Source: a virus. From it: DNA of 64,000 bases. The stretch is taken from IMG/VR virus record IMGVR_UViG_3300009610_000028, positions 1 through 64,000 of that record; one strand, written 5' to 3'. Below are positions 26,158 through 54,201 of the stretch, in pieces. The notes under the pieces were generated by a model, which had not been told where the DNA came from, did no database searches, and saw only the letters and a list, made by a program, of their open reading frames with translations. A program made the position numbers and the translations under genes. How positions within the stretch are numbered: position 1 is the first letter of the stretch; each line of letters begins with the position of its first letter.

Positions 26158-27834
26158 ATGAGTTCGATTTACGACGAGCTACGCGCGTCAATCGCGGACG
26201 GTCTCAAGAACCGTACATTGACAAGCTGCTCACGATGGGCTGCTCGTCGCAGAATCATGGGCGGCGAATTCGCCGGACCATATTCGGATTGTAAGCATCC
26301 GTGGGTCAGAGAGATGCACGACAGTTGGGCACCGTTCAACTGGGTAATGAAGGGCGCACAAGTCGGATGCACCGAAGTCGCCATCAACCGAGCGCTCTAC
26401 ACGATTGACAAGCTGCACCGGGACGTGATGTACGTCCTGCCCACCACGAAGAACGCCAGCAAGTTCAGCAAGGGTCGTTTTGGTACTGCTCTTGCTCTGA
26501 GTCCCTATCTCAAGGGTCTCTTCACTGACACGAACTCGGTGGACCTCAAGCAGGCCGGGGCCAACTGTCTCTACATCAGTGGCTCACGAGGCGACAGCAA
26601 CCTCAAGTCGGTGCCTGTCTCCGAACTCGTTCTCGACGAGTTGGACGAAATGGACAAGTGGGCGATCAGTCTAGCGCTGACTCGTCTTCAAGGTCATACC
26701 GAGAAGCACGTCTTCGGTCTCTCGACTCCCACCATTCCTAATCGTGGCATCCACGAGCAGTTCAAGAATAGCACCCAAGAACATTTTGTGTTCCCGTGCC
26801 CAAGCTGCTCGCGGCAAATCCACCTAACGTGGCCAGACAACATTGAAATCCTCGGCGAAAGCCTGATCGACCCGAAAATCAAAGACTCCTATCTCAAGTG
26901 CCATCTCTGCAATGCTCGTCTTGAGCATCTCGACAAGCCTAACTTTCTAAAGCATGCGACATGGGTCTCCATGAATCCCAACGGGATCAAGGAGCACCGA
27001 GGCTTCCACGTCTCGCAGATGTACAGCTTCACGATGAGTCCTGCGGAACTCGTCTATTTCTACTTCAAAGGCTTCGGCAGCGAGTGGGACGCCAAACAGT
27101 TCCACAATTCGCAGCTAGGCGTGCCATTCATCAGTGACGGAGCACAAGTCACTGACGAGATGATCGACCGTTCTATTCGTAACCATACGAAGAACGATGA
27201 CCGACCAGTGGTTGGCGGTGAGAAGATCATCACGATGGGCGTGGATCAAGGCGACTGGAGCTACTACGAAATCTGCGAGTGGACGATTGAGAGCTTCGGC
27301 CTCGATCTGAATGCAACGTCGCAATGCAAAGTGATTTGCGAAGGCAAGTTCTGGCGAGAAGACTTCGACCGTGAACTCAATCGACTAATGCGTGAGTGGC
27401 AAGTCCTCACGTGCGTCATCGACGCTGACCCCTTCGGCCTTGAAGCTCGACGATTCGCTCGTCGCTTCCCTGGCCACGTCTATCTCTGCCGCTATCGCAG
27501 CGGAGTGACGGCACGGGAGATCGCGATCACCGATGACGAAGACGGCGCACCGATCATCACAGTGGATCGCTCCAACTGGATGAGTGCGGCTTTGGGACGG
27601 TTCAAAAACAACCCGTCTCGGATTTGGTTACCCGCTGATGTGTCGCATGAATACCGCGAGCACGTCAAGAACCTCGTCGGCACGTACAAGCAAGACGAGG
27701 AGTTCGGCAATCCGGTCTATGTCTATGAAGACATCGGACCAGATCACTTCGGACATGCCCGCTGCTATGCGGAGATCGCGTTGCCGCTGGTGGCAGTGCA
27801 AATGACCAACAAGGATGTCAAGGCGTTCCTATGA
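26158..27834 (+). CDS. terL: Terminase large subunit (lambda GpA-like)
   Basis: KGAQVGCTE Walker A, VLDELD Walker B, STPT, CPSC...CHLC, MGVDQG nuclease Asp, DHFGHA. Confidence 0.92.
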   Translation: MSSIYDELRASIADGLKNRTLTSCSRWAARRRIMGGEFAGPYSDCKHPWVREMHDSWAPFNWVMKGAQVGCTEVAINRALYTIDKLHRDVMYVLPTTKNASKFSKGRFGTALALSPYLKGLFTDTNSVDLKQAGANCLYISGSRGDSNLKSVPVSELVLDELDEMDKWAISLALTRLQGHTEKHVFGLSTPTIPNRGIHEQFKNSTQEHFVFPCPSCSRQIHLTWPDNIEILGESLIDPKIKDSYLKCHLCNARLEHLDKPNFLKHATWVSMNPNGIKEHRGFHVSQMYSFTMSPAELVYFYFKGFGSEWDAKQFHNSQLGVPFISDGAQVTDEMIDRSIRNHTKNDDRPVVGGEKIITMGVDQGDWSYYEICEWTIESFGLDLNATSQCKVICEGKFWREDFDRELNRLMREWQVLTCVIDADPFGLEARRFARRFPGHVYLCRYRSGVTAREIAITDDEDGAPIITVDRSNWMSAALGRFKNNPSRIWLPADVSHEYREHVKNLVGTYKQDEEFGNPVYVYEDIGPDHFGHARCYAEIALPLVAVQMTNKDVKAFL

Positions 27835-29612
27835 CTTTGTATCAAACGCGAATCATCGACAGCCGGCATCCCAACTTCCTGTCGAACGTAGGTGACTGGG
27901 AGAAGTGGCGACTGACCTACCGGGGTGGGGAAGAGTTTCGCAACAAGTACCTCGAACAATTTACTAACCGCGAAGATCGACAGGACTTTGAAGCCCGCAA
28001 GCGAGTGACTCCTATTCCGAGTTACGCGAAAGCGGCCATCAACGACATCCGTAACTCGATCTTCCAGCGGATGCACGACATCACACGTCGAGACGGCAGC
28101 AAAGCTTATCAACGAGCGATTGCTGGCTTGGATGACGGAGTAGATCGTCGTGGATCAACGATGAATTCGTTCCTCGGCATCAAATGCCTGACGGAACTTC
28201 TGGTGATGGGGCGAGTCGGCGTCTGCGTCGATTCCCCGGTAGTTGAAGGTGCTACGCTCGCCGACGCCAAGGGCGCTCGGCCGTATCTCTACAGCTATCA
28301 AGTTGAAGACATTCTCAACTACTCATGCACCAAGCCTGACGAGCCGAGTGAGTTCCAATCCGTGTTGCTTCGCGACACGTGCATGGACTACGACCAACGC
28401 ACCATGCTGCCGCTTGGAACCTTCCAGCGGCTGCGGATGATGTGGATCGACAAAGAGACTGGCTTCGTCAATGTGCAGTTCTACAACGCAGCCGGCGATC
28501 CAATCGACAGCTACGGGAACACATCAGGCCCGGTGCAACTCGAACTCACGAAGATTCCCTTCGTACTATTCGACGTTGGTGACTCGCTCATCAAGGATGT
28601 CTGTAACCACCAAGTTACGCTTCTGAATCTGATCTCCAGTGACGTGAACTTCGCGCTCAAGGCGAACTTTCCGTTCTACGTCGAGCAACGCGACATGCGT
28701 GCGGTCGGCAGCCACTTGAAGGTCGCTGCTAACCCGGATGGCACCGCCACAACTGGTGGCCAAACATCCCACGACAACGAGATCAAGGTCGGTGCCACGC
28801 AAGGTCGGTTCTACGACATCAAAGCGAACGCACCAGCCTTCATCAATCCGTCGCCCGACCCGCTCAAGGCGTCGATGCAGTTGCGAGCCGAAATCGCAAC
28901 CGAGATTCGACGCTTGGTCAACCTTCGAGTTGAAGGCATGGCAGAACGAGCCAGCGCCGAGAGCAAGGCAATGGACAACCAAGGGCTGGAAGCTGGTCTC
29001 AGCTTCATCGGCCTGGTCCTGGAGAGTGGCGAACGCAAGATCGCCGAACATTGGGCCGCGTTTGAGGATCGAGTCGAAACCCGCCGCAAGGTGGCCACGA
29101 TCAAGTATCCCGACCGCTATAGCCTCAAGACCGATGCTGATCGCATCGACGAGGCCACTAAGCTCTCCAAGCTGATGTACACGGTGCCGGGCCAGACAGT
29201 GAAGAAAGAGATCGCCAAGATCATCAAAGATTCGCTGCTCGGTGGCAAGGTCAACGTGGAAACCATCTCGACAATCAATTCAGAGATCGACAATTCGGAC
29301 TATACGACTAGCGATCCTGAGACGATTGTTCTGGCCGTCGAGAACGGCCTATGCGGTGACCAAACCGCTTCTATGGCACTGGGCTTTGACGAGAACGAAT
29401 ACTTGCAAGCTCAGAAGGATCACGCCGCTAAAGCCAAGCGTGTTGCTGAGGCGCAAGCCAGCGTCAAGCCGGACCCAGGAGCACGGGGCGTCGATTCACT
29501 TTCGACCGATCCCAAGTCTGCTCCGAAAGAGAAGGCCGCCAGTCGGGATAAGTCCCTACAAAGTGACAATCAGAAGCGTGTTCGTGGCAACGGCCGCTTT
29601 CCCAAGGAGTAA
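27831..29612 (+). CDS. Portal protein
   Basis: Follows TerL with ATGA overlap; 593 aa; HP...W...Y-x-GG...YL...RE...R N-terminal portal pattern. Confidence 0.85.
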   Translation: MTLYQTRIIDSRHPNFLSNVGDWEKWRLTYRGGEEFRNKYLEQFTNREDRQDFEARKRVTPIPSYAKAAINDIRNSIFQRMHDITRRDGSKAYQRAIAGLDDGVDRRGSTMNSFLGIKCLTELLVMGRVGVCVDSPVVEGATLADAKGARPYLYSYQVEDILNYSCTKPDEPSEFQSVLLRDTCMDYDQRTMLPLGTFQRLRMMWIDKETGFVNVQFYNAAGDPIDSYGNTSGPVQLELTKIPFVLFDVGDSLIKDVCNHQVTLLNLISSDVNFALKANFPFYVEQRDMRAVGSHLKVAANPDGTATTGGQTSHDNEIKVGATQGRFYDIKANAPAFINPSPDPLKASMQLRAEIATEIRRLVNLRVEGMAERASAESKAMDNQGLEAGLSFIGLVLESGERKIAEHWAAFEDRVETRRKVATIKYPDRYSLKTDADRIDEATKLSKLMYTVPGQTVKKEIAKIIKDSLLGGKVNVETISTINSEIDNSDYTTSDPETIVLAVENGLCGDQTASMALGFDENEYLQAQKDHAAKAKRVAEAQASVKPDPGARGVDSLSTDPKSAPKEKAASRDKSLQSDNQKRVRGNGRFPKE

Positions 29613-29615
29613 GCA

Positions 29616-29915
29616 ATGTCAGCAGTTCAAGTGGTGAAAGAATCGTTGCCAGGTTTCATGGCAGGTAATGGGACAGTCGGCGGAACGCCGGCTCAACTCA
29701 CGACCATTGCGTTTCCAATCACCAAGCACGTCGTTGTCCAGGCTGCATCTGGCAATGGCAGTACGGTCAGCGTGGGGCCAGCCTCAGCGCAAGCCGCAAA
29801 CGGATACATCCTGGCAGCGGGCGAGAGCACGCCGCCGATTTACGTGGACGATACGTCCAAAGTGTGGGTCGTCGGGGGTGCCGCCGACCAGGATTACAAC
29901 TGGATCGCAAACTAA
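29616..29915 (+). CDS. Small virion protein, paralogue of 30645..30962
   Basis: KES-x-PG...N...V-x-VG...G...ADQD-x-x-WI shared. Confidence 0.7.
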   Translation: MSAVQVVKESLPGFMAGNGTVGGTPAQLTTIAFPITKHVVVQAASGNGSTVSVGPASAQAANGYILAAGESTPPIYVDDTSKVWVVGGAADQDYNWIAN

Positions 29916-30644: not shown

Positions 30645-30962
30645 GTGGAGATCACAAAAGAATCAGTGCCTGGATTGCTACATGGGCACCAGGCTGCCGG
30701 CACTTCGCGGATTCGTCTCACTGATCTGGACATTCCAGTTCACAAAGGCGTGCTGATGCGATGCCCCGGATCGGAAGACGCGGGCGGTGGCAATACGGCA
30801 CCCGTTTGGGTCGGTGGCAACGGCGTAACAGCCGATTCAGCCGCGACCGGCGGCATCCCAATCCTGCCAGGCGATTCGCTCTTCGTGCCGATTGAGCGGC
30901 CGATGTCGCTCTTCATCATCTCGACCGATGCGGACCAAGACGTTGCGTGGATCGGACTATGA
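30645..30962 (+). CDS. Small virion protein
   Basis: Paralogue of 29616..29915. Confidence 0.7.
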   Translation: MEITKESVPGLLHGHQAAGTSRIRLTDLDIPVHKGVLMRCPGSEDAGGGNTAPVWVGGNGVTADSAATGGIPILPGDSLFVPIERPMSLFIISTDADQDVAWIGL

Positions 30963-32200
30963 GCATCATTTACATCAGCAGTAGGGGCGTGGCTGGCCCA
31001 CAAGGCATTCAAGGCGACCCCGGTGCCGGTGTAATCAATTGGCTCGGCGTTTGGGACAGCGGCACTACTTACGAAATCAACGATGCTGTTTCCTACCAAG
31101 GAAGCAGCTACATCTGCCTCGTTCAGCATTCCAACCAAGTTCCTCCGAACCCGACCTATTGGGGCGTGCTCGCGGAAGTTGGTGACACAGGTGCAACCGG
31201 CCTGACCGGCGACACTGGTCTTGGAATCACCTGGCTTGGCGACTGGGACAGCGGTGACCCATACGTCGTCAACGATGCAGTGGTCTTGGATGGCACGAGT
31301 TACATCTGCATCCAGGATCATACGAATCAACAACCGCCGAATGTCGCGTACTGGAACATCCTCGCACAGAAGGGTGGCACTGGAGCGACGGGCAACACGG
31401 GCGCAACCGGCGCTCGTGGCCTCACGTGGCGAAACGCTTGGAACAGCATCACGGCCTATGCAGTGGACGATGCCGTTCAATACAACGGCAGCGCATACAT
31501 CTGTCTTCAAGCACACACGAATCAGTTTCCAACGAACCCTACCTATTGGAGTCTGCTGGCTTCAAAAGGTGACACTGGCACGACGGGCGACACCGGATTA
31601 ACCGGAGCGGCCGGTGCTGACGGGCAGGGCTTCACCTGGCGTGGCTCATGGAGCGGCGCAATCACCTACGCTCCCTACGACGTAGTTGAGTTCGACGGGT
31701 CCAGCTACAACTGCATTCTCGGCCACACGAATCAAACCCCACCGAATCCCACCTACTGGGAGACGATGGCCCAAGCTGGAGAAGATGGCGGCGGTGGCGG
31801 CAGTGGCGAAGGGCTGGTCACCGAGGCCGAGAACACGAACGCTGGTTCAATCTCAAAATGTCGCGTGGTCTATATCAGCGGCGTTGAAGAAGTTGATCTG
31901 GCGCGGGCTAACAACACAACCACCGCCAAAGCTTTTGGCCTGGTTGCGGATAACTCCATCTCTGCGAGTGTCTCCGGCAACATTCAGATCAGTGGCATTC
32001 TCGAAGCCACAACCGGCCAGTGGGACACTGTGACCGGGCAAAGCGGTGGGCTGACATCAGGTGCCATCTATTACCTCAGCGCAGCCACCGCAGGCGCAAT
32101 GACGACGACAGCGCCTGTCTCTGGATTCATCGTCGAACTCGGCAAGGCGCTGAGCACAACCAAATTTGACACCACGATAAGGCGGCCGATTCGGCTGTAA
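30959..32200 (+). CDS. Fibre protein: four Trp/Tyr-rich CBM5/12-like modules with collagen linkers plus C-terminal beta domain
   Basis: 4x W-x-G-x-W...Y...D-x-V...G-x-x-Y-x-C...H-x-N-Q-x-P...YW; G-X-Y triplets. Confidence 0.8.
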   Translation: MSIIYISSRGVAGPQGIQGDPGAGVINWLGVWDSGTTYEINDAVSYQGSSYICLVQHSNQVPPNPTYWGVLAEVGDTGATGLTGDTGLGITWLGDWDSGDPYVVNDAVVLDGTSYICIQDHTNQQPPNVAYWNILAQKGGTGATGNTGATGARGLTWRNAWNSITAYAVDDAVQYNGSAYICLQAHTNQFPTNPTYWSLLASKGDTGTTGDTGLTGAAGADGQGFTWRGSWSGAITYAPYDVVEFDGSSYNCILGHTNQTPPNPTYWETMAQAGEDGGGGGSGEGLVTEAENTNAGSISKCRVVYISGVEEVDLARANNTTTAKAFGLVADNSISASVSGNIQISGILEATTGQWDTVTGQSGGLTSGAIYYLSAATAGAMTTTAPVSGFIVELGKALSTTKFDTTIRRPIRL

Positions 32201-35206: not shown

Positions 35207-36577
35207 ATGAGTATCATTCATGTCAGTAGCCGTGGTGTTGCCGGTCCCCAAGGCATCCAAGGTGATCCAGGACCAGGCGTCATTAACTGGCTAGGCGAGT
35301 GGTCAGACGCCACCGCCTACGAAGAGAATGATGCGGTAACCTGGCTCGGCACGAGCTATATCTGCATCGTCGCTCACACCGATCAAGAGCCACCTGATCC
35401 CACCTACTGGGACGTGCTCGCTTCCAAAGGCGATGAGGGTGACGCGGGCGACCAAGGTGATGCCGGCCTCAGCATTGAGTGGCAAGGCAATTGGGATAGT
35501 GGTCAACCATACGTGGTGAATGATGCTATCACACTCGATGGCACCAGCTACATTTGCACGGTCAATCACACAAATCAATCGCCGCCCAACGCTGGCATTT
35601 GGAATGTGCTCGCCGCGAAAGGTAGTACAGGTCTCACTGGAAACACCGGCCTCACGGGTCCGATTGGAATCACCTGGCGAGGCGCGTGGAACTCAATCAC
35701 GAGTTATGCCCTCAATGACGCAGTGACTTCTGGTGGCAGTGACTACATCTGCATTCAAGCTCACAGCAATCATCAACCGCCCAACGTCATCTACTGGGAC
35801 TTTGTAGCCTCGAAGGGCGACACTGGCACCACGGGTGACACTGGCGAGACAGGTGACACTGGTGCTACCGGCGATGGCTTCACATGGGAAGGTGAATGGA
35901 GCGGCGCAGAACCTTACCAAGTGCGTGATGTCGTTCAGTTCGATGGATCGAGCTACAACTGCATCCTCGGACACACCAATCAAACGCCACCGAATCCCAC
36001 CTATTGGGAATTGATGGCGTCGAAGGGTGACACTGGCACTTTTGACACAGACCCACTCACAGGCGCTGAGACCGGCACGGACGTAACCGCACAAACGGTG
36101 TCCACTCATCGGCGACCTGAGACGATCCAATCGACGCACACATTCACTAACCAAAGCGTCACGATCACGGATCACACGACGGATGGCGGCCACGGCGGTG
36201 TGAAAATCTTCGACTATCCCGAAGGCCATTTCGTGGTCGTTGGTGCTGTCGGCAATCTCACGATTGCTCGCGTCGGCACGAACCTGACAGCAACTGCTGC
36301 TCTGGTGTTCTCACTCGGTACGACGGTCGCTGGTATCGACAACGATACGCTCACCGGAACCGAAGCTGACATCATTCCGTCAACAGCCGCCACGCTGAGT
36401 GGTGGAACAGTCACGGTCAACTTTCAGAAGTCAGCCTTGCAATTCATCGACGGCACCGCCGGAGCGGCCGACGCCTACTTCAACGTGGTGTCTCCCGATG
36501 CTGGCATTTCTGGCAATGATGCTGTGCTCGTCAATGGCACTGTCATCCTCACCTTGATTCGCTTGGGTGACAACTAA
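35207..36577 (+). CDS. Second fibre protein: same four modules as 30959, different C-terminal domain
   Basis: N-terminus MSIIHVSSRGVAGPQGIQGDPG nearly identical to 30959; diverges after about aa 275. Confidence 0.8.
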   Translation: MSIIHVSSRGVAGPQGIQGDPGPGVINWLGEWSDATAYEENDAVTWLGTSYICIVAHTDQEPPDPTYWDVLASKGDEGDAGDQGDAGLSIEWQGNWDSGQPYVVNDAITLDGTSYICTVNHTNQSPPNAGIWNVLAAKGSTGLTGNTGLTGPIGITWRGAWNSITSYALNDAVTSGGSDYICIQAHSNHQPPNVIYWDFVASKGDTGTTGDTGETGDTGATGDGFTWEGEWSGAEPYQVRDVVQFDGSSYNCILGHTNQTPPNPTYWELMASKGDTGTFDTDPLTGAETGTDVTAQTVSTHRRPETIQSTHTFTNQSVTITDHTTDGGHGGVKIFDYPEGHFVVVGAVGNLTIARVGTNLTATAALVFSLGTTVAGIDNDTLTGTEADIIPSTAATLSGGTVTVNFQKSALQFIDGTAGAADAYFNVVSPDAGISGNDAVLVNGTVILTLIRLGDN

Positions 36578-37134
36578 TGGCCATCAACTTCGACTACTAC
36601 GGCTCGCTCAGCGAAGCCAATGAATACTTTGACATGCGTCTCCACGAGAGCGCATGGTATGGGGCGACTCTCACGACTCGTCCCAAGGCACTGTGGGCCG
36701 CGACCAGAATCATCGACACCTTGAACTACAAAGGGTTCAAGAGCACTGTCTATGACTTGCTGGTTGCAAACAGCCTCACAGACTTGCCACGCGATCTCAG
36801 TGACACGAGCACTCCAACATTGGACGAAGTTCTGGCTGCTGAGGCCGCGCAGGTGCTGGAGTTTCCGCGAGGCTTGGATTCAACAGTGCCAGAGGCGATT
36901 CGCATCGCCCAGTATGAGATCGCTCACACGCTCCTCGATGGCAAAGACCCAGAGTTGGAGCTTGAGAACCTTGGCATTATCAGTCAAGGCTATGCGTCAG
37001 TTCGCACAACCTTTAGCAGAACGCACGTGCCCGTTGAACATATCGTCAACGGCGTGCCTAGCTCTACGGCCTGGCGACTTCTAGTCCCGTTTCTTCGGGA
37101 TGACGACGCGATTCGCGTTAGCCGGGTGTCGTAA
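36577..37134 (+). CDS. Putative head-tail connector/adaptor
   Basis: YGSLSEANEYF...W...KAL-x-x-AT-x-x-ID...LEFPR...VPEAI...AQYEIA pattern. Confidence 0.7.
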   Translation: MAINFDYYGSLSEANEYFDMRLHESAWYGATLTTRPKALWAATRIIDTLNYKGFKSTVYDLLVANSLTDLPRDLSDTSTPTLDEVLAAEAAQVLEFPRGLDSTVPEAIRIAQYEIAHTLLDGKDPELELENLGIISQGYASVRTTFSRTHVPVEHIVNGVPSSTAWRLLVPFLRDDDAIRVSRVS

Positions 37135-37230
37135 CACCAGGCTTCTAGGGCTACGGCCCATCCTTACCGGCTGGCAGAACCCGTGCCAGACCTACCGGGT
37201 CCAAATTCGGGGTGCAAGGAAATGTTGGTC

Positions 37231-38088
37231 ATGTTCGTGAATGATTGGTACAAGCTGTGCGCGCTCGTTGCCTGCTATGACGGCGAAAACGAGGAGATTC
37301 CTGATCCGCCTGTCGCTCCCAAAGAAGAGGAGATGAAGGCACCGGAAGGATTCACTGCCGAGCAGCAAAAGAAATTCAATGATGCCGTCGCGGCCGAGCG
37401 CCGCAAGCAAGAGACGAAGTGGCGAAGTCAGCTAGAGAAGGCTGAGGCCACTTACAAAGAGATGCTCGCGAAGACGGAAGGTCTCAGCGCCAAAGAGCGT
37501 GCGACCATCCAAGAGAATCTCGATACGGTCTCTGGACAACTCCGCAGCAAAGAGCATCAAGCTCAACTGGAGAAGAAGGAGTTGGAAGCTTCCTACCAAG
37601 GGAAGCTCACAGAAGCTCAACGTCGGGCCGAGATCGCTGAACAGCGTTATCGCGATTCGACCATCATGCGTGCGCTACAAGACGCCGCAGTTGAGCACGA
37701 GGCGTATAGCGCCTCACAGGTCGTCACGCTTCTCCGTGAGAAGACCAAGCTCGTCGAGACGCTCGACGAGAAGACCAACAAACCCAACGGACAGTTCAAG
37801 GTCGTCGTCGAGTTTCCTGACAAAGACAACACGACTGGCCAAGAGGTAATGACCACCAAGACGCCGGCAGAGGCAGTGAAGCGGATGACAGAGGTTGCTG
37901 AGTTCCAAAACCTCTTCCGCAAGAACGTCGTGTCTGGTGTTGGTGGCAACTCGGCTATCGGTGGCCTTACACCGGGTTCAAACGGGCGTATTGATGCGGC
38001 GAAGCTAACGCCGGAGCAATACCAAAAGGTGCGAGCAGAGAACCCTGAACTGCTCGGTCTGCGGCCTACTACTAAGCGCCGCCGTTAA
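37231..38088 (+). CDS. Capsid scaffolding protein
   Basis: Immediately upstream of coat; FT-x-EQ motif, long coiled coil, Gly-rich linker, LTPEQY-x-K-x-R tail. Confidence 0.85.
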   Translation: MFVNDWYKLCALVACYDGENEEIPDPPVAPKEEEMKAPEGFTAEQQKKFNDAVAAERRKQETKWRSQLEKAEATYKEMLAKTEGLSAKERATIQENLDTVSGQLRSKEHQAQLEKKELEASYQGKLTEAQRRAEIAEQRYRDSTIMRALQDAAVEHEAYSASQVVTLLREKTKLVETLDEKTNKPNGQFKVVVEFPDKDNTTGQEVMTTKTPAEAVKRMTEVAEFQNLFRKNVVSGVGGNSAIGGLTPGSNGRIDAAKLTPEQYQKVRAENPELLGLRPTTKRRR

Positions 38089-38143
38089 AGCGATCAGGGG
38101 TCGAATTTCCCGAAACAAAGAAACGTCCCTTTTGGAGACAAAC

Positions 38144-39562
38144 ATGAACCTGTGGTATCTCTCTGTGGCCGCTGTGGCGTGCTACGCAAATGACAATGAT
38201 GCTTTCGTGCCCGAATTGTGGGCGAACGAGGGGTTGGCCATCCTCGAAGAGAATATGGTCGCCGCGAATCTCGTTCACCGCGATTTCGAGCCGGAGATTC
38301 GCAACTTCGGCGATGTGGTCAACACCCGCCGGCCGGGCACCTTCGGCATTCGCCGGAAGGTTGACGGAGACACACTGAGCCAGCAAGACGCGAACGCGAC
38401 GAACGTCCGTGTGCCTCTGGATCAGTGGTTCTACAACTCGTTCACGATCAAGGATGGCGAGGCTTCGCTGAGCTTCCAAGACCTCGTGGACATCTATCTG
38501 CTCCCCGGCATGCAGACCATTGCCCGCTCGGTTGACCGCGCGGTGCTCGGTCGCATCCATGCCTTCTTCAACACTCCGACCAAGCGAGCCGGCAAGCTCG
38601 GTGGCTTGGATTCCACGACCGCCAAGGATTACACCTTGGAGGCTCGCCAGATTCTCAACGAGAACCTGGCCCCTCTCGACGGACGCCGGAGCCTTGTGCT
38701 CTCGCCCGCGAGCGAGACCGGAATGCTCAAGAACGAACTCTTCATCCGCGCCAACGAGCGTGGTGATGGTGGGTCGGCTCTTGAGAATGCGACCCTCGGT
38801 CGTATCCTCGGCTTCAACACGTTCCTTGACCAGAACGTGAACAACATCTCGACTGGTGCCGAGACTATCGCTGGCACGATCACCAACGCCCTCGCGGCTG
38901 GTGGATCGGGCAGCCAAGCTTGCACCGTCACGGCGTATGAGGTCAATGTTGGCGAGTTCGCGACGGTGGCTGGCAACATGCAGCCCACCTACGTGACCGC
39001 CCGCACGGCTTCGACCAACACCACTGCCGTCACCTTCAATGAGGCCAACAAGTACGCCACGCTCGCTTCGGCGGTCCTGACTGTGTACAAGGCTTGCGAT
39101 GTCAACGGCGCTTACGCCGCTGGCTACAGCAAGGGCATCATCCTGGATGGCTGGAACACCGATCAGCCCCCGCAGGCTGGTCAGTTGGTTGCGTTCAACA
39201 CCGGCAGCAACCGCCGGACCTACACCGTCATCAACAGCGAGCTTACCGCCGCTGGCGAGCAGACTGTGTACCTGGATCGGCCGCTCGAAGTCGCCCTGGC
39301 GAACAACGACCTGGCCTTCCCCGGTCCCTACGGTAGCTTCAACTGGGCGCTGCACCGCGAGGCCATTGCCCTCGTGAGCCGTCCGTTGGCCATGCCGAAC
39401 AACCGCATGGGCGTGATGAGCCAAGTTGGTGTCCACAACGACATCAGCATGCGCGTCAGCATGCAGTACGACATCAGCGCCGGTGGCACCATCGTCAATC
39501 TCGACCTGCTCTGCGGTGTCGCGGTTCTCGATAGCCGTCTGTGCGTGCCGCTGCTTGGTTAA
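38144..39562 (+). CDS. Major capsid protein (P22 coat-like) with inserted domains
   Basis: PELWA-x-E-x-L-x-x-LEENMV...VHRDFE...GDVVN-x-RRP; G-x-LGRILGF; HREAIALVSRPL; D-x-L-x-GV. Confidence 0.92.
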   Translation: MNLWYLSVAAVACYANDNDAFVPELWANEGLAILEENMVAANLVHRDFEPEIRNFGDVVNTRRPGTFGIRRKVDGDTLSQQDANATNVRVPLDQWFYNSFTIKDGEASLSFQDLVDIYLLPGMQTIARSVDRAVLGRIHAFFNTPTKRAGKLGGLDSTTAKDYTLEARQILNENLAPLDGRRSLVLSPASETGMLKNELFIRANERGDGGSALENATLGRILGFNTFLDQNVNNISTGAETIAGTITNALAAGGSGSQACTVTAYEVNVGEFATVAGNMQPTYVTARTASTNTTAVTFNEANKYATLASAVLTVYKACDVNGAYAAGYSKGIILDGWNTDQPPQAGQLVAFNTGSNRRTYTVINSELTAAGEQTVYLDRPLEVALANNDLAFPGPYGSFNWALHREAIALVSRPLAMPNNRMGVMSQVGVHNDISMRVSMQYDISAGGTIVNLDLLCGVAVLDSRLCVPLLG

Positions 39563-39638: not shown

Positions 39639-39893
39639 ATGCCCACGATTCTAGCAGTGGGTGAGTTTGGAGATGCGGTCGCACTGGTGAAACAGTTTGG
39701 CCCCTTCTTTCTCGCCGTAGTTTTCTTTCTGTGGCGGGACTGGCAGCGTGAAAACCGCCTCTCCAAACGCATCGACGAGCTAGAAGACGAGCATCGTCAA
39801 GTGCTTCTACCACTTGTCAAAGAGTCTTCGGCTTGCATCGCAACCAACACGCACGTGTTGGAACGCATCGAGAAATACCTTGACCGTTTGTAG
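39639..39893 (+). CDS. Small single-TM coiled-coil protein (holin-like, unconfirmed)
   Basis: One TM helix followed by a coiled coil, BhlA/UviB-like layout. Confidence 0.55.
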   Translation: MPTILAVGEFGDAVALVKQFGPFFLAVVFFLWRDWQRENRLSKRIDELEDEHRQVLLPLVKESSACIATNTHVLERIEKYLDRL

Positions 39894-53631: not shown

Positions 53632-54201
53632 ATGAAGCTGGCGAAGGAGAGCATTGATCGTTTCTTTGACTACGACATTCACGTCGAGAGTCGAACGATC
53701 TGGCTAGGTGATGACGAAGATGGCATCACGGAGAAAACATCGGAGCGTCTCGTGAAGGCGCTCCACATGCTGGCCAACGCCGCGCCCGACAGGGAGATCA
53801 CTATCTTCCTGAATAGTCTGGGCGGCTGTTGGTTCAATGGCATGGCAATCTACGATGCGATTCGGGCCTGCCCATGCCCGATCACTTGCTACATCATCGG
53901 CGCTGCGATGTCGATGGGTAGCATCATTGCACAGGCATGCGACCAGCGTCTGATCTATCCGAACGCAACCATGATGGTCCACGACGGGTACGAGACACGG
54001 GTCGATGACATCCCACGGACGTTTCAGAACTGGGCGGACTACTCGAAGCACACCCAGAAGAAGATGTACGAAATCTATGCTGAGCGGTCTGGACGGCCAG
54101 TGACCTTCTGGCGGAAGAAGTGTTCGGCCGATCTCATCCTGACAGCGGCCGAGGCCAGGGAGCTTGGCCTGGTCGATGCGATCTTCGGAGAGCCAGCATG
54201 A
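53632..54201 (+). CDS. clpP: ClpP-family serine protease
   Basis: LNSLGG, G-x-AIYD, AMSMG (Ser), MMVHD (His), D-x-ILTA-x-EA-x-ELGLVD (Asp). Confidence 0.92.
   Translation: MKLAKESIDRFFDYDIHVESRTIWLGDDEDGITEKTSERLVKALHMLANAAPDREITIFLNSLGGCWFNGMAIYDAIRACPCPITCYIIGAAMSMGSIIAQACDQRLIYPNATMMVHDGYETRVDDIPRTFQNWADYSKHTQKKMYEIYAERSGRPVTFWRKKCSADLILTAAEARELGLVDAIFGEPA

Follow-up and report, generated by a model that had tools for sequence, protein, structure and literature searches.

The 64,000-nucleotide stretch of viral DNA analysed here (the window; positions 1 to 64,000 of IMG/VR virus record IMGVR_UViG_3300009610_000028) is part of an 83.4-kb record, G000, with a CheckV completeness estimate of 77%, and its source is an uncultured phage of Planctomycetes that has many relatives. 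In its head module the neighbouring genes for the head scaffolding protein and the major capsid (coat) protein both begin with a short N-terminal leader of the same kind, and it is these two leaders, and the way they have stayed matched in related phages, that are described below. The features concerned are as follows.

37216-37220, + strand: Shine-Dalgarno-like AAGGA, 10 nt before the scaffold ATG
37231-38088, + strand: head scaffolding protein gene, 285 aa (phrog_206, E 7.2e-11, residues 31-273)
37231-37278, + strand: scaffold leader MFVNDWYKLCALVACY, 16 residues, ending at an aromatic residue with an acidic linker next
38134-38137, + strand: Shine-Dalgarno-like GGAG, 6 nt before the coat ATG
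38144-39562, + strand: major capsid (coat) gene, 472 aa, P22-coat family (PF11651 and phrog_283)
38144-38185, + strand: coat leader MNLWYLSVAAVACY, 14 residues, directly before the N-arm ANDNDAFVPELWA

A leader common to scaffold and coat

The two genes open as a sequence-only reading of the window had described them, the scaffold running from its ATG at 37231 as MFVNDWYKLCALVACY followed by DGENEE, and the coat from its ATG at 38144 as MNLWYLSVAAVACY followed by ANDNDAFVPELWA. That reading also held that the leaders stand on two otherwise unrelated head proteins, and this is supported. The scaffold, whose open reading frame (ORF) ends in a basic C-terminus (TTKRRR), matches phrog_206, and the coat is a member of PF11651 (90.9 bits, cut-off 24, residues 22-269; phrog_283, E 2.4e-54). 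A scan of the window in six reading frames places the motif W[YF]-x(3-6)-A-x-V-A-C-[YF] at the starts of scaffold and coat only. When the six frames of the 83.4-kb genome were searched with a hidden Markov model (HMM) of the leader, two ORFs scored well (14.9 and 11.1 bits), and the next-best matches, at 6.0 bits or less, were short spurious frames; in the HMM search everything above 6.5 bits is a coat or a scaffold, except for one 48-residue antisense frame. Nor did 51 genomes or loci yield a third ORF with at least 6 of 10 identities to the genome's own leaders, the two matches at this level being spurious.

The 14 residues of the coat leader are an addition to the coat, because the family profiles begin at about residue 15: coat residue 22 aligns with position 8 of the Pfam P22_CoatProtein profile, and residue 15 with position 2 of phrog_283. 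These coordinates agree with the earlier proposal that the coat without its leader has the usual start of a P22-like coat. The coats of cultured relatives share about 25% identity, their alignments beginning at residues 12-28, and in one of these relatives, Vibrio phage MAR10, the coat begins directly with the N-arm and the start of the upstream gene is unrelated. An AlphaFold2 (AF2) model of the coat has a mean predicted local distance difference test (pLDDT) value of 82.9, falling to block means of 47-52 in residues 1-30, and because leader and N-arm are both of low confidence the model is silent on docking of the leader in cis.

The coat family is large, with at least 1346 relatives at E ≤0.001 among 8000 scored. 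The best 120 coat homologues (63-100% identity), read by eye, all carry a leader that ends in Tyr or Phe. A regular expression for the junction caught 116 of these 120, with the junction at residue 14 in 97 of the 116, and Cys occupies position -1 in 110 of the 114 that span the full 17-residue scoring window. For the scaffold, 71 of 82 homologues fit the same junction pattern, and 46 of these have the junction at residue 16; the 11 that do not fit comprise five with an N-terminal truncation or another called start and, for the rest, variants such as SLY and RY. The leader consensus, [LW]-Y-[LK]-S-x-A-x-V-A-C-[YF], is followed by ANDNDAF[IV]PE.WA in the coats, some of which have 3-18 extra residues between leader and N-arm, and by [ED]-G-[ED] and a variable, low-complexity linker, acidic or made of Ala and Gly, in the scaffolds. 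The shortest leaders are 7-8 residues long (MNPFKVCY, MIRVACF), and both proteins have one invariant feature only, an aromatic at the junction with small or acidic residues after it. Alignment of scaffold and coat N-termini from relatives, a check that the sequence-only reading had itself proposed, thus finds the motif co-conserved in both proteins.

One complete 148-kb relative, G028, encodes a coat-like protein and an upstream ORF (L171 356-1159 and 1156-2172) of a different kind. The coat-like protein has 338 residues and is without the middle (insertion) part of the coat, and both it and the 267-residue upstream ORF begin with a twin-arginine-like peptide (NRRxFLxxLGLGA). The next gene is methyltransferase-like, hence this is not a normal head module.

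Matching of the two leaders within genomes

Pairs of leaders from the same genome were drawn from 59 IMG/VR loci found via the coat and 20 found via a candidate peptidase that is discussed below, which together gave 51 distinct pairs. Over the first eight positions the two leaders of a genome share 3.92 identities, against 1.87 for leaders from different genomes, and identity is higher within than between genomes at each of ten positions. The observed within-genome identity was reached by 0 of 10,000 label shuffles, in a test that ignores relatedness among genomes; this, and the placing of 12 of the 51 junctions by hand (by eye), must be counted against the reading developed below. Features that are particular to a lineage recur in both proteins, such as FPCY in scaffold and coat alike, NTPxLAC, PVLALY, SFY in scaffold and coat alike, and RAR[LF].

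The residue before the aromatic is Cys in both leaders of 42 pairs and something other than Cys in both leaders of seven (two Ala/Ala, two Leu/Leu, and one each of Val/Val, Phe/Phe and Val/Phe), and only two pairs are discordant, with a single Cys. On a tree of the coat bodies the Leu/Leu pair L158 lies within Cys clades, away from a basal clade without Cys, and because it nests there the joint switch at this position happened more than once. Judged by these substitutions, the leader Cys is dispensable.

At identical leader residues the codons are the same in 85 cases and different in 113 (36 distinct pairs), and in pair L048 the 10-mers are identical, yet only 21 of 30 bases are. Because the codons at identical residues mostly differ, the match must be kept by selection at the protein level and not by gene conversion, in line with the earlier claim of protein-level conservation as opposed to a recent DNA duplication. 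We conclude that the leader is real and strongly non-random, and that it co-varies between scaffold and coat genome by genome.

The head module and candidate enzymes

The head module has the gene order TerL, portal, small proteins and fibre genes, adaptor-like gene, scaffold and coat. Its remaining main genes, and two genes elsewhere that bear on the leader, are listed here.

26158-27834: TerL gene, part of the head module
27831-29612, + strand: portal protein gene (phrog_145, E 5.5e-37), kept in 13/13 loci
36577-37134, + strand: head-tail adaptor-like gene (phrog_477, E 1.2e-9), directly upstream of the scaffold, kept in 13/13 loci
53632-54201, + strand: ClpP-like protease gene (PF00574, 111 bits; phrog_94 head maturation protease, E 9e-35)
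73824-74306 of G000 (= 1325-1807 of L105), outside the window: 160-residue gene of the conserved core, predicted C39-like fold

The order TerL, portal, adaptor, scaffold, coat holds in 13/13 compared loci, most of which have nothing but the adaptor-like gene between portal and scaffold. Because the adaptor alone separates these genes, the head module of most relatives has no slot for a head-protease gene. In the present phage the same interval also carries two paralogous proteins of about 100 residues (29616-29915 and 30645-30962, + strand) and two genes for fibres that contain CBM_5_12 repeats and runs of collagen-like Gly-X-Y (30947-32200 and 35207-36577, + strand), of which it is empty in most relatives. 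Directly after the coat lies an 84-residue ORF (39639-39893, + strand) with a single hydrophobic stretch that looks like a membrane span, FGPFFLAVVFFLW, and a charged, helical tail after it. Homologues occur in 11/13 compared loci, PHROGs give no match, and a membrane protein is unusual within a head module.

No conserved classical head protease was found with the head module, the types considered being S78, ClpP-type and S49; S77 (T4), U9 and U35 were not searched. S78 is absent from 23 of 23 records, and S49 from the 83.4-kb genome, the only genome searched for it. The sequence-only reading had proposed co-expression with the ClpP-like protein of this phage and with two cysteine peptidases in the window, and none of the three is supported as the enzyme. 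The ClpP-like gene, whose best PHROG matches are 'head maturation protease' families, is located after the tail genes, and six compared relatives contain no homologue; the domain PF00574 occurs in 0/10 and 3/22 related records, and in 0/13 of those that are at least 90% complete. It was set aside as an accessory gene, and the two cysteine peptidases have matches in fewer than three of six relatives at E 1e-6.

A different candidate came from the conserved core of the genome, which was defined by comparing every ORF of G000 with six relatives, five of them complete and the sixth covered for the most part. The 160-residue gene listed above is kept in 6/6 of these. Of 12 coat-derived records nine carry it and the other three are 31-62% complete, and the coat family is present in 23 of 31 IMG/VR records that were found via the 160-residue protein, including 9/9 near-complete ones. 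The protein family has 838 representatives at E ≤0.001. Across 78 sequences C12 and H119 are invariant and D130 and P131 occur in at least 90%; the near-invariant residues are W10, G33, H34, G36, E57, G108, D130 and P131. The order and spacing of Cys12, His119 and Asp130 suggest a papain-type catalytic set. The public record of this peptidase begins at Met19 and so loses the invariant Cys12, as do several homologues in the databases, and the longer start of the ORF overlaps an upstream nuclease-like ORF by 113 nt.

The AF2 model of the 160-residue protein has a pLDDT of 97.7, and its top Foldseek matches are the C39 domain of PCAT1, LahT150 and ComA (E 8e-5 to 2e-3). In VIA comparisons the model gives Z 13.0 with PCAT1, at a root-mean-square deviation (rmsd) of 2.5 Å over 123 residues, Z 12.4-13.0 with the C39 domains compared (rmsd 2.5-2.7 Å over 120-123 residues), Z 12.8-12.9 with LahT150, ComA and the phage lysin PeiR, and Z 11 with staphopains. 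In the ESM Atlas the structure rows are C39 families, and the neighbours are clusters of viral hypothetical proteins and a cluster with IpaJ_protease in 46% of its members. The protein resembles PCAT1, LahT150 and ComA in its predicted fold and in having an invariant Cys near the N-terminus, then a His, then Asp-Pro. It differs from them in standing alone, without an ATP-binding cassette (ABC) transporter, in lacking membership of the family at the sequence level (PF03412 gives no match at E ≤0.1 in the 78 family members scanned), and in that its supposed substrate leader has no Gly-Gly. No match was found in INPHARED phages by tblastn. C39 enzymes remove N-terminal leader peptides (PMC6363468), an activity that processing of the two head proteins would call for.

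Several observations weigh against assigning the processing of the leaders to this protein. The C39 match is tied, within 1 Z, with one to PeiR (Z 12.9), a phage cell-wall endoisopeptidase and C71-type lysin, so that the model places the protein in the papain-like fold class and the tie leaves its subfamily unsettled. It has no Pfam match at E ≤1, no PHROG match and no match to Protein Data Bank (PDB) sequences, whether searched as a single sequence or as a profile. Its gene lies among genes of DNA metabolism (a nuclease, a helix-turn-helix (HTH) protein and a ligase), some 36 kb away from those of the head. Cleavage by C39 enzymes takes place after Gly-Gly, and the scaffold and coat leaders, which have none, end in [C/A/L/V/F]-[Y/F]. 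No column of the peptidase alignment follows the Cys or non-Cys state of the leader in 20 genomes, and the co-occurrence of peptidase and coat family in 23/31 records may only reflect common descent. The protein could equally be the missing endolysin of these phages; a lysin is suggested because of the structural tie with PeiR and because three endolysin families, Phage_lysozyme, Amidase_2 and SLT, are each absent from 23 related records, G000 included (other lysin families were not searched). Prediction of a complex between this protein and residues 1-45 of the coat gave a score of 0.01 against a mark of 0.32, without controls, and speaks neither for nor against the pairing.

Readings of the leader

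The system most like the present one is that of staphylococcal phage 80alpha, in which leaders of 13 and 14 residues are removed from capsid and scaffold by Prp; cleavage is dispensable there and the N-terminal peptide of the scaffold is itself essential, and a common chaperone or regulatory role has been proposed for the leader (PMC5744158). The 80alpha leader copies that of the host ribosomal protein L27, and its real role is still unclear (PMC5744158); the L27 motif is MLxx(D/N)LQ(F/L)F, then A(S/H)KK (PMC9405229). Both systems have one short leader on two unrelated head proteins, of 13/14 residues in 80alpha and 16/14 here, and in both the head module has no classical prohead protease (for 80alpha, PMC5744158 and PMC9405229). 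They differ in that the motif is of L27 type in 80alpha and [LW]Y[LK]SxAxVxC[YF], then [ADE], here, in that no Prp and no long L27 occur in the host lineage linked to the present phages, and in that the leader here drifts and co-varies genome by genome. The coat family here is PF11651.

We favour, with a little less than even confidence, the reading that the leader, an N-terminal tag specific to the phage, acts as a propeptide, is read by a phage-encoded factor and is cut off. A reader encoded by the phage is indicated because the leader is not fixed, but drifts and co-varies genome by genome. Scaffold and coat would need to present the tag alike to a single recognising partner, which would evolve together with each phage. 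A protease would read about ten residues upstream of the invariant aromatic and cut after it, between [C/A/L/V/F]-[Y/F] and [A/D/E]; the cut in the coat would expose the canonical P22-like N-arm (A15-N-D-N-D-A-F-V-P-E-L-W-A), and the cut in the scaffold would free the acidic, low-complexity linker. The minimal leaders of 7-8 residues fit a site that is read by an enzyme. Further points in favour are the conservation and co-variation of the leader, its position as an addition to the coat family, the lack of a conserved classical head protease and the precedent of 80alpha. The best candidate for the enzyme would be the 160-residue core protein with its putative Cys12/His119/Asp130 and C39-like fold, which, all things considered, we think unlikely to be the one that cuts. 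On cleavage as such we are close to evenly divided. The cut, its site and its enzyme are inferred; of residues 1-30 the AF2 model of the coat says only that they are of low confidence, and because cleavage is dispensable and the scaffold peptide essential in 80alpha, a shared leader need not act via cleavage.

The leader may instead be an uncut assembly tag, which we consider possible but on balance doubtful. The leaders would then be read by a common phage partner or pack together inside the procapsid, and would tie scaffold to coat in folding, dosage or co-polymerisation, with cleavage absent or incidental. Such a role would sit well with 80alpha, where a pre-cleaved scaffold makes no capsids and uncleavable scaffold and coat are viable (PMC5744158), and also with the spread of the co-variation over all ten positions, beyond the last four, with the tethering of the scaffold leader by a variable low-complexity linker in the manner of a docking peptide, and with the lack of a conserved classical head protease. 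It is harder to square with leaders whose sole invariant feature is the junction and its aromatic, which shrink to 7-8 residues and lie outside the family-typical start of the coat; the leader is also left undocked on the coat body by AF2, which in a low-confidence region is weak evidence. A lipobox ends in a consensus that L/A-V-A-C resembles, and both leaders of the window have this ending and are hydrophobic, so that a secretion or lipoprotein signal, or a Cys that serves for covalent modification or cross-linking, has to be weighed as well. We regard this as very improbable. Of 114 coats, 34 have Val (24), Thr (8) or Pro (2) just before the Cys, the leaders have no basic N-region and are only 7-16 residues long, and head proteins assemble in the cytoplasm. 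The sequence-only reading had named the Cys as a possible modification site, and in 7/51 pairs both proteins have Ala, Leu, Val or Phe in its place.

That the leader imitates one on a host protein and is therefore cut by a host protease, as with L27 and Prp in 80alpha, was the mechanism suggested by the sequence-only reading, and we judge it improbable. The form of the arrangement is the same, with 14 and 16 residues on capsid and scaffold, no classical phage head protease is conserved, and different host lineages could explain leaders that are lineage-specific. A link to hosts is given by the only cellular genome found with the coat, an uncultured Planctomycetaceae metagenome-assembled genome (MAG) with a 6.6-Mb chromosome that holds a decayed copy of the head module (one further coat homologue is labelled Planctomycetota by its source). 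This remnant (L002 9400-11300) adjoins an integrase-like gene and consists of a truncated scaffold and an internally deleted coat without the leader. Several of the related virus records are flagged as proviruses. In the linked MAG, however, L27 is ordinary, starting MAHKKGQGSS at position 1 of the Pfam profile without an extension, and no Prp (PF04327) exceeds the cut-off (best 13.5 bits against 27); Prp is likewise absent from the 83.4-kb genome and from 22/22 related phage records. The paper that gives the L27 motif (PMC9405229) makes no mention of Planctomycetes. A strict DNA pattern for the leader, TAY-N9-GCN-N3-GTN-N3-TGY-TWY, which covers the Cys-type consensus only, has one match in the linked MAG, inside and antisense to a long ORF. 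Across 33 Planctomycetaceae genomes it has 16 matches against 40 for a reversed-pattern control, and none of them is an N-terminal leader, which counts against mimicry. One match, recurring in four genomes, corresponds to a hydrophobic stretch close to the N-terminus of a protein of about 400 residues, which may be NuoH, and no acidic residues come after the stretch. Fast, genome-specific drift also fits a phage-encoded reader better than it does a conserved host enzyme. Mimicry of L27 and the use of Prp are therefore rejected for the one linked host lineage, and what stands of the 80alpha analogy is its form, a leader on scaffold and capsid, and not its mechanism.

Other known head systems are less similar. 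T4-type propeptides, or capsid-targeting sequences, are short N-terminal peptides on several head proteins that are cut at a common motif by gp21. The leader described here is like them in being a short N-terminal peptide common to more than one head protein, but in the 51 genomes or loci it is confined to scaffold and coat, and no S78, S49 or conserved ClpP-type protease was found with it (S77 was not searched). The likeness to P22 lies in the PF11651 coat with its acidic N-arm, in the separate scaffold with a basic C-terminus and in the order portal-scaffold-coat. To our knowledge, coat and scaffold of P22 are neither processed nor share a leader, and the cultured relative Vibrio phage MAR10 has none.

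So far as we know, a leader shared by scaffold and capsid has been worked out only for staphylococcal phage 80alpha. The same arrangement appears to have arisen independently here, in another coat family and another host phylum, and without Prp or a long L27. Because the leader drifts freely yet stays matched, a common N-terminal tag would be a selected principle of assembly and not an accident of a borrowed protease. Keyword searches of open-access text found no description of this leader or of a C39-type head protease. That a stand-alone phage cysteine peptidase of C39-like fold represents a new class of head-maturation enzyme, clipping a leader of about ten residues after an invariant aromatic in a co-evolving lock-and-key, is an unlikely proposal as matters stand. 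The large coat family offers many natural variant pairs with which the function of the tag can be probed, and if the proposal is true, the C39-like enzyme and the leaders would form a private lock-and-key across a large family of Planctomycetes phages.

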